14,053 bases of DNA from contig JAJTEH010000045.1 in the NCBI GenBank assembly GCA_021298355.1, positions 1 through 14,053 on the forward strand, in the 5' to 3' direction. A program made the translations under genes and the position numbers. This document shows, piece after piece, positions 11,138 through 14,053 of this stretch. The DNA is from Flammeovirgaceae bacterium. Its GTDB lineage: Bacteria; Bacteroidota; Bacteroidia; Cytophagales; Cyclobacteriaceae. The notes under the pieces were generated by a model. It saw nothing but the letters and a program-made list of their open reading frames with translations, did no database searches and was not told the origin of the DNA. How positions within the stretch are numbered: position 1 is the stretch's first letter; each line of letters begins with the position of its first letter.

Positions 11138-11527
11138 TTAATCCTCCTTCTGTTCACAGGGCTCAACAAAGCGAACTTTGTGTTGTTTGGTGCCATCGTA
11201 GTTTACAATGGCCATACACTGTACACCATTAGAATTAAAATTTTCCGGATCAATTTCTACATACGCATTTTCTTTGTTACCAGCATCAGCAGATGCATCA
11301 GTTGGTTTCACTTCGAGGTAAGCAAAAAAAACATTTTGTTCATCGCCAACATTTTCTCCTAAATGATAGAATGCAGGATCTTTAATTTGCAACACGGCTG
11401 TACCGCAAATGCTGCGTAATACGCTTACGTTTACACACGTGCCATTAGATTTGTTTATCACTTCTTGCTGGCATGTAAAGGCAAAGAGGAAAACACTTAA
11501 AAAAAGAACAGATGAGGTGGTTTTCAT
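11138..11527 (-). CDS. Hypothetical small secreted protein / lipoprotein, Cys-containing
   Basis: 129 aa. The N-terminus MKTTSSVLFLSVFLFAFTC is a signal peptide with a lipobox-like FAFTC. There are four further Cys residues. No family recognised. Confidence 0.6.
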   Translation of the reverse strand: MKTTSSVLFLSVFLFAFTCQQEVINKSNGTCVNVSVLRSICGTAVLQIKDPAFYHLGENVGDEQNVFFAYLEVKPTDASADAGNKENAYVEIDPENFNSNGVQCMAIVNYDGTKQHKVRFVEPCEQKED

Positions 11528-11598: not shown

Positions 11599-12345
11599 TT
11601 AAGAATTATTCCACTCGTAAATTTTATCTGCGATCTCGCTCAACAAGGCTGGATCTTTTTCTAAAGCATTGCCAATAACAATGCAATCTGCTCCGGCTTC
11701 TAACGCAGTTAATGCCTTATGTGCAGAATTAATACCGCCTCCCACCAATAACGGACATTCAATAGATTTGCGCACGCTGTTTATCATTTTAGCGGATATC
11801 GGACGCTCGGCACCACTGCCGGCATCCAGGTACATCATGCGCAAGCCTAACATTTCTCCGGCCATTGCCGTGCAGGCAGCTAACGAATATTTTTCTTCTG
11901 GTAAAGGAGTAGTGTTGCTCATATAGGCAACAGAAGTAATTTTACCGGAATTTATCAGCATGTAACCCGTTGGGATTACTTCTAACTTTGTATTTTTTAG
12001 GATTGGTGCTGCAATAACATGTTGTCCGATTAACAATTCAGGATTTCTACCTGAGATTAACGACAAAAATAAAATACCATCGGCACTAGGTTCTATTTGC
12101 ATGGTATTGCCCGGAAACAACACCACAGGAATGTTTACACTTTGCTTAATCTGTTTTACAACTTCGTGCAAATTAGTGGTGGTAATTAAACTTCCACCTA
12201 CAAAAAAATAATCGACTAAATTTTCGCTGGCTAAGTTTATTAAATGTTGCAAACGCAAACCATCTTCAACCTTATCGGGGTCGATAAGTACGGCAACTGA
12301 CTTGTGCCCTTTGGCTTTTTTTTCCTGAAACGACTTATAGATCAT
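11599..12345 (-). CDS. Geranylgeranylglyceryl phosphate synthase family (GGGPS / PcrB-like prenyl-glyceryl-phosphate synthase)
   Basis: 248 aa. Family blocks are VAVLIDPDK, YFFVGGSL, VVLFPGN, ADGILFLSLISGRNPELLIGQ, MMYLDAGSGAERPI and PLLVGGGINS…GADCIVIGNA. These indicate a TIM-barrel G1P prenyltransferase. Confidence 0.9.
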   Translation of the reverse strand: MIYKSFQEKKAKGHKSVAVLIDPDKVEDGLRLQHLINLASENLVDYFFVGGSLITTTNLHEVVKQIKQSVNIPVVLFPGNTMQIEPSADGILFLSLISGRNPELLIGQHVIAAPILKNTKLEVIPTGYMLINSGKITSVAYMSNTTPLPEEKYSLAACTAMAGEMLGLRMMYLDAGSGAERPISAKMINSVRKSIECPLLVGGGINSAHKALTALEAGADCIVIGNALEKDPALLSEIADKIYEWNNS

Positions 12346-12730
12346 CGTTAGGTTTGTTTTCTTTCTTCGCTAAATATTCGCCAACTTTTTCTTTTGCTAT
12401 TGCTAAAAGAAAAACGGCAGCCTGGCTTGCCAACACCGTTCCAATTTTTGTTATGGTTTGACTAATGGCCGATGGCTCTTCTGCTTCTACTTCGTTTTCT
12501 TCGCCTTCACCTTTTGCTTTGCTTATTTTTTTCTTCTTTCCTTTCTTATCCGAAACTAAAGTATAAATTAAATAGGTGGCTGCTAACACTCCCCCTACAA
12601 TCAATGCTGTTTTAATAATTTTTTCTGTGCGCTCCGACACAACTTTTACTTCTCCCTGCAAAGCTTCCTTTTGTTGTGCGGCTTTGCGGAGCAACTGCGT
12701 TTTAGGATCTGTTTCTTCTAATAATTCCAT
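12335..12730 (-). CDS. Hypothetical membrane protein: amphipathic N-terminus, one TM helix, Lys/Glu-rich linker, second hydrophobic helix
   Basis: 131-aa ORF. Its stop overlaps the GGGPS start by 11 nt, and its start lies 1 nt after the upstream gene's stop. Contains ALIVGGVLAATYLIYTLV and the KKGKKKKISKAKGEGEENEVEAEE linker. No family recognised. Confidence 0.6.
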   Translation of the reverse strand: MELLEETDPKTQLLRKAAQQKEALQGEVKVVSERTEKIIKTALIVGGVLAATYLIYTLVSDKKGKKKKISKAKGEGEENEVEAEEPSAISQTITKIGTVLASQAAVFLLAIAKEKVGEYLAKKENKPNDDL

Positions 12731-12731
12731 A

Positions 12732-13118
12732 TCAATCGTTGAGCTTTTCTTTTAACTTTTCTTCGAGGGCTGCACTAACAGGTTGGCGCAAGGCCAACAC
12801 AATTATCAACATTAAAAAATAAAACAAGGCTACTGCGCCAAATCCCATCATATAACCCCAAAATGTAGCTAACCACAAGGCTAATGTTATGCTGATAAAA
12901 ATGATGAACAGACTAAAGGCCATAAGCACAACTAGCATAATAGTTATGCGGGCAATGGCTTTGGCTATTTCTTCCTTCACTTCGAGTTTTACTAACTCGA
13001 GGCGCGTTTCAACGTAATCTGTTAAATTGTTTACCAGATTATCAAGGCGAAGTAATTTTAAAATGGATTCTTTCCACATATTGGCAAGATAGAAAATTTG
13101 TTCCATCTGTTGAAGCAA
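12732..13118 (-). CDS. Small 2-TM membrane protein resembling the 'holin-X / phage holin superfamily III' (PF07332-like) family
   Basis: The architecture is an amphipathic helix (LVNNLTDYVETRLELVKLEVKEEIAKAIARI) followed by two TM helices. The start is uncertain: ATGs at 13118, 13106 and 13079, and I consider MWKESIL… at 13079 plausible. Confidence 0.6.
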   Translation of the reverse strand: MLQQMEQIFYLANMWKESILKLLRLDNLVNNLTDYVETRLELVKLEVKEEIAKAIARITIMLVVLMAFSLFIIFISITLALWLATFWGYMMGFGAVALFYFLMLIIVLALRQPVSAALEEKLKEKLND

Positions 13119-13127
13119 AATAAATGC

Positions 13128-13703
13128 CTAAACGCGCGTAACCCATTTAGCAATTACACGCGGATAGTGCTCGTGTTCTAATTGCAATACTTTTCCCCCT
13201 AAAGTTTCAGGGGTATCGGTTTTATCAACTTCACATTTTACTTGTAAAAGAATTTCTCCATCATCGAAATGTTCATTTACCAGATGGATGGTTAAACCAC
13301 TTTCCTTTTCTGCAGAAGCAATAACTGCTTTGTGAACATGCATTCCATACATTCCTTTACCTCCAAATTTGGGTAAAAGAGATGGATGAATATTGATGAT
13401 TTTCTCAGAATAGGCTTTGATTAAATAATCGGGAACCAATAACAAAAATCCGGCTAACACAATATGCGAAACGCCATGGCTTTGCAAGGTTTGCAATACT
13501 GTTCTGCTAGTATAAAATTCTTCTTTATTAATGAGTATGGATTTAACACCAAACTGGTTTGCTTTTTCTAACACACCGGCATTTTCTTTATTGCATACAA
13601 CTAAGGCCACTTCTATGGCTGCATGATTGGCTAAATAATGCATGATGGCTTCTGCATTACTGCCCGAACCAGATGCGAAAATAGCTATGCGAAATGGCTT
13701 CAT
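13128..13703 (-). CDS. purN: Phosphoribosylglycinamide formyltransferase
   Basis: 191 aa. Contains IAIFASGSGSNAEAI, ENAGVLEKA, IVLAGFLLLVP and IINIHPSLLPKFGGKGMYGMHVH…ESGLTIH…FDDGEIL, classic PurN motifs including the catalytic N/H/D triad context. Confidence 0.93.
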   Translation of the reverse strand: MKPFRIAIFASGSGSNAEAIMHYLANHAAIEVALVVCNKENAGVLEKANQFGVKSILINKEEFYTSRTVLQTLQSHGVSHIVLAGFLLLVPDYLIKAYSEKIINIHPSLLPKFGGKGMYGMHVHKAVIASAEKESGLTIHLVNEHFDDGEILLQVKCEVDKTDTPETLGGKVLQLEHEHYPRVIAKWVTRV

Positions 13704-14053
13704 ACTTGTGCCGGCAAAAATAACATGCTGATGATGCCCAGTAACATAATGATTTTACTGAGGTTGCTCAACCACCTGAAATCTTTAACGGTATCCGCTC
13801 TGTGCAAACGCAAGGCAAACCAAGCCAATGGCAAAAACAAAAACGACATAAAATACACAGATGGAAGAATGGTAAAGTAACTGTCTAAGATCAGCACAAG
13901 AAGCACAAACACAACCAACACACTATATAAAAAATATTTTGTTTTTCTAATGCCCCACAAAATTGGTAAGGTTTTACATCCGAACGTAATGTCGCCTTTT
14001 AAATCTTCCATATCTTTTACAACTTCGCGCACCAACGAAATAAAGAAAGCGAA
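13700..14053 (-). CDS. UbiA-family prenyltransferase, C-terminal part (gene continues beyond the window); DGGGP-synthase-like
   Basis: The frame is open to the window edge; the TTG at 14035 is internal. The translation …FAFFISLVREVVKDMEDLKGD… contains the second Asp-rich UbiA motif in the REIxKDxEDxxGD form typical of (di)geranylgeranylglyceryl-phosphate-type enzymes, followed by 3-4 TM helices. Its stop overlaps the purN start (ATGA). Confidence 0.8.
   Translation of the reverse strand, partial: FAFFISLVREVVKDMEDLKGDITFGCKTLPILWGIRKTKYFLYSVLVVFVLLVLILDSYFTILPSVYFMSFLFLPLAWFALRLHRADTVKDFRWLSNLSKIIMLLGIISMLFLPAQV

Follow-up and report, generated by a model that had tools for sequence, protein, structure and literature searches.

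The window analyzed here is a 14,053-nucleotide stretch of DNA from a Flammeovirgaceae bacterium, and it makes up an entire contig (G000:C65) of a 3.6-Mb, Cytophagales-like host genome that is 97.3% complete. At one end it carries an array of five minus-strand genes that includes both archaeal-type ether-lipid enzymes: a geranylgeranylglyceryl phosphate (GGGP) synthase (GGGPS) and a UbiA-family prenyltransferase resembling digeranylgeranylglyceryl phosphate (DGGGP) synthase (DGGGPS). The other three genes are purN and the genes for two small membrane proteins of 128 and 131 amino acids. We conclude that two units of transcription that are separate in related Cytophagales, TonB receptor - UbiA - purN and holin-X-like - 131 amino acids - GGGPS, were probably fused recently, at the genus level, to form this array. 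The locus thus presents a known enzyme pair, whose co-occurrence has already been published, in a new lineage-specific arrangement. What is new is this lineage-specific adjacency, the gene trio with its apparent conserved coupling, and the existence of genomes that have lost GGGPS yet kept UbiA.

A first-pass annotation of the window, made from the sequence alone, had treated the five genes as one operon and had taken the coupling of the two prenyltransferases as support for a real two-step pathway. When gene order was checked in other genomes, it was not conserved, and the inference drawn from the coupling was not supported. Our scan of related loci, which used one genome per species, covered 75 GGGPS loci, mostly from Cytophagales metagenome-assembled genomes (MAGs) and from Chryseolinea, Ohtaekwangia or Chryseosolibacter. 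UbiA-purN lies beside GGGPS at only one of these 75 loci (L004), which belongs to a congeneric species with 88% DNA identity, and UbiA was found within 3 kb of GGGPS at none of the 40 loci of a phylum-wide sample. The distance from UbiA to GGGPS is 91 kb in one relative (G110) and 0.77 Mb in another (G134). Because relatives keep the UbiA-purN pair and the trio separate, we interpret the array as a fusion of two older blocks.

Across relatives, what stays with GGGPS is the pair of small membrane-protein genes. Searches with the window proteins using tblastn recovered the 128-amino-acid gene, the 131-amino-acid gene and GGGPS in this order at 66 of the 75 related loci. Among the nine loci without the full trio, four are truncated, the middle gene is divergent in two, and the remaining three are Flavobacteriia-like with another gene context. 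Of 64 relatives, 61 have a stop codon of the 131-amino-acid gene that overlaps the ATG of GGGPS, and in 50 of these the overlap is 14 nucleotides long. Profile searches of the phylum-wide sample found the trio at all four Cytophagales loci and at none of the 36 loci from other families. It is present in every sampled genome with GGGPS from families f1, f2 and f69, and was seen in all sampled Cytophagales genomes with GGGPS as well as in one further family. At five other loci checked, a Na/Pi cotransporter gene lies upstream of the trio. This trio, with its apparently conserved translational coupling, constitutes a new lead.

As for the other block, UbiA and purN are adjacent in four of eight genomes from the same family (G110, G134, G198 and G214). 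In G110, a TonB receptor gene precedes the pair and a convergent gene follows purN. The purN product scores 151.4 bits against TIGR00639 (cut-off 150.1), and tblastn found no second purN copy in the whole host genome. The embedding of purN in the array, which the first-pass annotation had left unexplained, is now accounted for, since UbiA-purN is itself a conserved pair and purN came with UbiA. In two other families (L080, L092, L106 and L108), UbiA is located between a gene for a KdsC-like haloacid dehalogenase (HAD) hydrolase and maf, a housekeeping string without a link to GGGPS. As a separate observation, the window purN protein is 80% identical to its counterpart at L004:4645-5220 and the flanking genes are 93-98% identical, so that purN at the block junction would have undergone either faster evolution or exchange.

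UbiA runs off the end of the window, and its first 202 codons are located on contig C9 of the same genome (L003:9059-9664), which gives a full protein of 282 amino acids. The end of C9 and the end of the window share 113 identical bases. Furthermore, the congeneric MAG carries L004 on a 287-kb contig that is colinear across the C9/window join, with the above DNA identity extending over 8 kb, and its gene order is TonB-dependent receptor - UbiA - purN - 124 amino acids - 131 amino acids - GGGPS. A misassembled contig join as the cause of the adjacency is excluded by the exact 113-nucleotide overlap and this independent colinear contig.

Some signals were seen at the level of motifs only. In most of 68 relatives, a conserved TATATTGC-type box, read from the upstream sequences, lies within ~10-25 nucleotides upstream of the gene that opens the trio, and the window has a one-mismatch version, TATTTTGC, in the same place. 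The TATTTTGC box may represent the -7 element of an ancestral promoter of the trio, kept in the window, and the fused array may still hold the trio's own promoter. With 6 of 68 loci, the canonical Bacteroidota TAnnTTTG box showed no enrichment upstream of the trio, and a scan for sigma-70 promoters and terminators inside the array gave no more sites than shuffled sequence. On C9, the 42-nucleotide gap between the TonB receptor gene and UbiA contains a hairpin of 12 base pairs with a run of seven T residues after it (L003:9039-9069). This hairpin overlaps the first UbiA ATG (the next ATG is codon 8) and has a TAtcTTTG box in its loop. It may act as a terminator for the receptor gene, a promoter for UbiA, or both.

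The open reading frame list and the sequence confirm that the five genes are tightly packed on the minus strand (Table 1). As previously described from the sequence, UbiA and purN share an ATGA overlap at 13700-13703, a single nucleotide (12731) separates the 131-amino-acid gene from the 128-amino-acid frame, and the 131-amino-acid gene overlaps GGGPS by 11 nucleotides (12335-12345). The gap of at most 9 nucleotides that had been reported 3' of purN applies to the 128-amino-acid frame when it is read from a TTG codon at 13118 (open from 12732 to 13118). However, alignments with homologs begin at one of two ATG codons, 13106 or 13079, rather than at this TTG, and therefore the true gap between purN and the 128-amino-acid gene is more likely 21 or 48 nucleotides.

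Table 1. Features of the five-gene array and their positions in the 14,053-nucleotide window.
Feature	Position	Strand	Remark	Evidence
GGGPS, 248 amino acids, predicted group IIb	11599..12345	-	final gene of conserved trio	PF01884, NF003198, TIGR01769
131-amino-acid membrane protein, family without Pfam model	12335..12730	-	stop overlaps GGGPS start	alignment of 36 homologs
PF07332-family protein with two transmembrane segments (holin-X / DUF1469 type)	12732..13106	-	opens trio	PF07332
TATTTTGC box between purN stop and 128-amino-acid gene	13115..13122	-		motif match only
purN (glycinamide ribonucleotide formyltransferase)	13128..13703	-		TIGR00639
DGGGPS-like UbiA prenyltransferase, C-terminal 117 codons of 282 amino acids	13700..14053	-		NF009513

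We assigned the two enzymes by means of curated-model scores, solved-structure scores and published trees. The 248-amino-acid protein exceeds the cut-offs of PF01884 (129.4 bits, cut-off 23.9, E-value 1.8e-37), NF003198 (285.7 bits, cut-off 247) and the GGGP equivalog TIGR01769 (180.9 bits, cut-off 161.55). Its closest solved structure is 4jej, the GGGPS of Flavobacterium johnsoniae (231 bits, residues 2-233), and the Methanothermobacter thermautotrophicus enzyme (4mm1) scores 140 bits. In contrast, PcrB structures score only ~31 bits, and the group I GGGPS of Archaeoglobus fulgidus (2f6u) scores 28.5 bits. By this score comparison, the protein is predicted to be a group IIb, Bacteroidota-type GGGPS and not a PcrB, which agrees with the original identification of the gene as GGGPS. 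The structure 4jej has itself been placed in group IIb (Peterhoff et al. 2014, as cited in PMC9385802). The window enzyme shares the TIM-barrel family of the F. johnsoniae protein, whereas the settings of the genes differ: the three Flavobacteriia-like loci have a PnuC gene after GGGPS, and the Cytophagales GGGPS is the third gene of the trio. By analogy with this relative, the window GGGPS would convert geranylgeranyl diphosphate (GGPP) and sn-glycerol-1-phosphate (G1P) to GGGP. We also observed unusually long open frames that hold GGGPS, with 382 amino acids in G074 (L131:2996-4141) and 512 amino acids in G143 (L158:2233-3768); frames of this length would fit with fusions at the N or C terminus or with in-frame extensions upstream.

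Since the UbiA gene is divided between contigs, its N-terminal and C-terminal parts were scored separately, giving 275 and 136 bits, respectively, against NF009513; the N-terminal part also matches PF01040 (105.9 bits). The full-length ortholog in L004, which is 97-98% identical to the two fragments, scores 339 bits against NF009513 (cut-off 288), a family that NCBI names simply "prenyltransferase". This ortholog scores 62 bits with the chlorophyll synthase model and 46 bits with EboC. The possibility that the protein groups with quinone or heme prenyltransferases, raised in the first-pass annotation, was examined and finds no support in the scores. Models for such enzymes remain below 30 bits on the window fragments, with values of 28 bits (heme O synthase) and 24.5 bits (UbiA) for the N-terminal part and 22 bits (MenA) for the C-terminal part. 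The best match in the PDB is 6m31, the DGGGPS of Methanocaldococcus jannaschii (2e-18, residues 47-274), and the full-length L004 ortholog has both Asp-rich motifs, NDYYDIKID (NDxxDxxxD type) and DMEDLKGD (DxxxD type), which align to those of the M. jannaschii enzyme, although the overall sequence similarity is weak and the window protein belongs to the bacterial family NF009513. By model and structure scores, the gene is thus placed on the DGGGPS branch, apart from MenA, heme O synthase, UbiA and chlorophyll synthase, and the earlier description of the protein as DGGGPS-like appears to be correct.

Other UbiA roles in the host genome are taken by paralogs, namely heme O synthase and MenA, which are encoded by separate genes, and a protein encoded in a type III polyketide synthase cluster. 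The gene for this fourth UbiA paralog (contig C26:6167-10053; L162:3668-7554) clusters with genes for a FAD-dependent oxidoreductase, a type III polyketide synthase and a methyltransferase. The oxidoreductase resembles the geranylgeranyl reductase superfamily (102.9 bits). We considered whether this flavoprotein and the fourth paralog belong to the ether-lipid route and rejected this assignment given the make-up of the cluster, which we take to resemble clusters of the Srs/Agq type, whose products are prenylated lipids of the alkylresorcinol or alkylquinone kind.

Reading two tables of search results together, we found GGGPS in 119 of 301 Bacteroidota genomes, and all 119 have a DGGGPS-like UbiA match at an E-value of at most about 1e-23, a tally that describes a pattern and not a statistic because it includes related, non-independent genomes. 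The reverse does not hold, as about ten of the 301 genomes carry UbiA without GGGPS, including G198 and G214. The pairing of both enzymes that had been proposed from the window is seen across the phylum. It is this co-occurrence that provides support for a two-step pathway, and adjacency adds little.

We regard G198 and G214 as natural GGGPS losses. Their trio locus still has the holin-X-like gene together with another small gene, and after these come the same convergent genes, for an AraC-type regulator and an acyl-CoA dehydrogenase, as after GGGPS in G174. Against the 131-amino-acid profile, the second small gene in G214 gives a weak match (E-value 7e-4).

A complete archaeal ether-lipid pathway was not found in the host genome at its stated completeness. 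The best match to the G1P dehydrogenase model PF13685 (24.6 bits) falls below the cut-off of 28, CDP-archaeol synthase (PF01864) gave no match, and the best score for geranylgeranyl reductase (TIGR02032) is 102.9 bits with a cut-off of 158.8. Without a recognizable G1P dehydrogenase, CDP-archaeol synthase or geranylgeranyl reductase, the pathway would be truncated relative to that of archaea. Two polyprenyl synthases are encoded in the genome. Any product would likely be a minor unsaturated mono- or di-ether lipid.

Previous surveys and experiments provide a frame for these observations. Orthologs of GGGPS and DGGGPS occur in all 12 surveyed phyla of the FCB (Fibrobacteres-Chlorobi-Bacteroidetes) group, and G1P dehydrogenase is missing in most FCB phyla (Coleman et al. 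2019, PMC6431249). GGGPS from Bacteroidetes shows activity in vitro, the F. johnsoniae enzyme being reported to have GGGP synthase activity with G1P, and archaeal-type lipids are made in E. coli by a Cloacimonetes GGGPS/DGGGPS pair (Villanueva et al. 2021, PMC7852524). In addition, UbiA sequences from Bacteroidetes have their branches among those of archaeal DGGGPS (Lombard et al. 2012, PMC3533463). Like these FCB-group pairs, the two window genes represent the same two families in a bacterium whose lipids are otherwise made with fatty acids and in which no G1P dehydrogenase was found. Unlike them, they lie side by side and are apparently transcribed together with purN and the two small membrane-protein genes, an arrangement that L004 shares and that was seen at none of the other 114 Bacteroidota GGGPS loci.

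Our preferred explanation joins the fusion of two blocks with a short lipid route whose steps are modeled on characterized relatives. GGGPS would join GGPP to glycerol phosphate to form GGGP, and the UbiA enzyme would then add a second prenyl chain in the membrane to give a minor archaeal-type mono- or di-ether lipid. Several points weigh against this explanation. In G198 and G214, which belong to the same family and are 100% complete, no GGGPS was found and UbiA-purN is kept; because of this, the geranylgeranyl transfer to GGGP by UbiA is putative, and the protein may have another or an additional substrate. The L004 UbiA ortholog also falls under the archaeal DGGGPS equivalog cut-offs, with 182 bits for NF009512 (cut-off 278), 144 bits for NF009521 (cut-off 296) and 113 bits for NF009522 (cut-off 353). 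Moreover, the putative operon structure and internal promoter are read from gene spacing and motif matches only, and we know of no lipid product for any member of the Bacteroidota.

One rival explanation is that the five genes form a dedicated ether-lipid operon, in which the coupled prenyltransferases carry out a two-step pathway and the small proteins serve as accessory factors. The very tight spacing, the conservation of the arrangement in another species with 88% DNA identity, and the co-occurrence of both enzymes across the phylum are all as this explanation predicts, as is the finding that the 131-amino-acid gene occurs only beside GGGPS and overlaps its start. However, UbiA and GGGPS are not adjacent at 74 of the 75 related loci and at all 40 loci of the phylum sample, and purN is a single housekeeping copy that travels with UbiA. 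The holin-X-like gene and the second small gene stay in G198 and G214 without GGGPS, and a promoter-like box is kept before the trio. We therefore consider a dedicated operon quite improbable.

The other rival explanation separates the two enzymes. GGGPS would make a mono-ether lipid as PcrB does in Bacillus, where the product is dephosphorylated and acetylated, UbiA would prenylate some other acceptor, and the adjacency of their genes would be coincidental. Such a division could explain why UbiA is kept in the complete, GGGPS-less genomes G198 and G214 and in about eight more of the sampled genomes, and why its usual neighbors elsewhere are the housekeeping genes for the KdsC-like HAD hydrolase and Maf. 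It would also fit with the scores below the archaeal DGGGPS equivalog cut-offs and with the lack of a CDP-archaeol synthase to process DGGGP. Nevertheless, every sampled genome with GGGPS carries UbiA, the closest solved relative and the closest curated models of the protein are those of DGGGPS, and the homologous Cloacimonetes pair did produce archaeal-type lipids in E. coli (PMC7852524). On balance, a UbiA enzyme that does not act on the GGGPS product is possible but doubtful.

Of the two small membrane proteins, the 128-amino-acid protein matches PF07332 (43.6 bits, cut-off 28.4) and has transmembrane segments at residues 58-76 and 92-110, which confirms its description as a holin-X-like protein with two such segments. 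The 131-amino-acid protein had been called a bitopic, Lys/Glu-rich protein. It does have a linker that is Lys-rich and then acidic, but there are two hydrophobic helices (residues 41-59 and 93-111) and the protein need not be bitopic. An AlphaFold2 model has helices at 9-62 and 88-125 with a disordered stretch at 65-85 (predicted TM-score 0.29), from which an N-terminal helix running into a transmembrane helix and a hydrophobic or amphipathic C-terminal helix are predicted. A Pfam search with all 36 members of the 131-amino-acid family returned only noise, and a search of the ESM Atlas returned only unnamed Bacteroidota clusters. Among 121 genomes of the class, profile searches recovered the family in 5, each time directly upstream of GGGPS, as are its recognizable homologs at the related loci.

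The proposal that these proteins are accessory factors is retained in part: they are conserved partners of GGGPS, but a similar gene pair persists in two genomes without it. Because the holin-X-like gene and the second small gene are retained there, we treat the proteins as candidates and not as demonstrated dedicated factors. They could form a Cytophagales-specific membrane adaptor that recruits soluble GGGPS to the membrane or passes its lipophilic product to the membrane prenyltransferase, with the overlap of the 131-amino-acid stop and the GGGPS start setting the stoichiometry. We judge this specific role unlikely; if true, no accessory factor would have been known before it for an archaeal-type ether-lipid enzyme of bacteria.

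A resemblance to the yqjCDEK cluster of E. coli was also explored. Like the inner membrane protein YqjE, which we take to be a member of PF07332, the 128-amino-acid protein has a vETRLxL..E motif followed by two transmembrane helices, and its gene is also paired with a gene for another small membrane-associated protein. The match is weak and limited to this motif (hhalign probability 52%, 36 columns), and in E. coli there is no link to a prenyltransferase. The 131-amino-acid protein has no similarity to YqjD or YqjK. A YqjD/YqjE/YqjK-type module is thus unsupported and is kept as a lead.

The role of archaeal-type GGGPS and DGGGPS homologs in Bacteroidota is a long-standing question. The locus described here corrects an attractive inference, because the adjacency of the two genes is probably an accident of recent rearrangement and not a sign of a conserved pathway operon. 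At the same time, it offers several handles on the question. The small-protein pair is coupled to GGGPS throughout the Cytophagales, including cultured genera (Chryseolinea, Ohtaekwangia and Chryseosolibacter), and the natural "knock-outs" that lost GGGPS and kept UbiA and the small-gene locus are suited to comparative lipidomics. A third handle is the co-occurrence rule among the sampled genomes, in which GGGPS is never found without UbiA and the reverse does occur.

Additional observations concern the surroundings of these genes. In L075, L076 and L078 (Polaribacter, Flavobacterium and an unclassified MAG), a gene for a PnuC-type nicotinamide riboside transporter lies directly 3' of GGGPS. 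A phosphopantetheinyl transferase-like gene is located 5' of GGGPS in L076 and, under the Pfam cut-off, in L075, and a divergent Crp-type regulator gene is upstream of GGGPS in L078. L076 also has a NadR-like AAA gene after PnuC, a position that was scanned in this locus only, and a PAP2 phosphatase gene 1.3 kb downstream. In the window, a 129-amino-acid protein is encoded 71 nucleotides downstream of GGGPS on the same strand (11138-11527, minus strand). It contains several Cys residues and begins with a hydrophobic, signal-like segment; it gave no family match, and its only homolog was found in the congeneric L004. On C9, the gene for selenide, water dikinase (selD) overlaps that for tRNA 2-selenouridine synthase (mnmH) at L003:4121-6165, and this pair is divergent from the TonB receptor - UbiA block.

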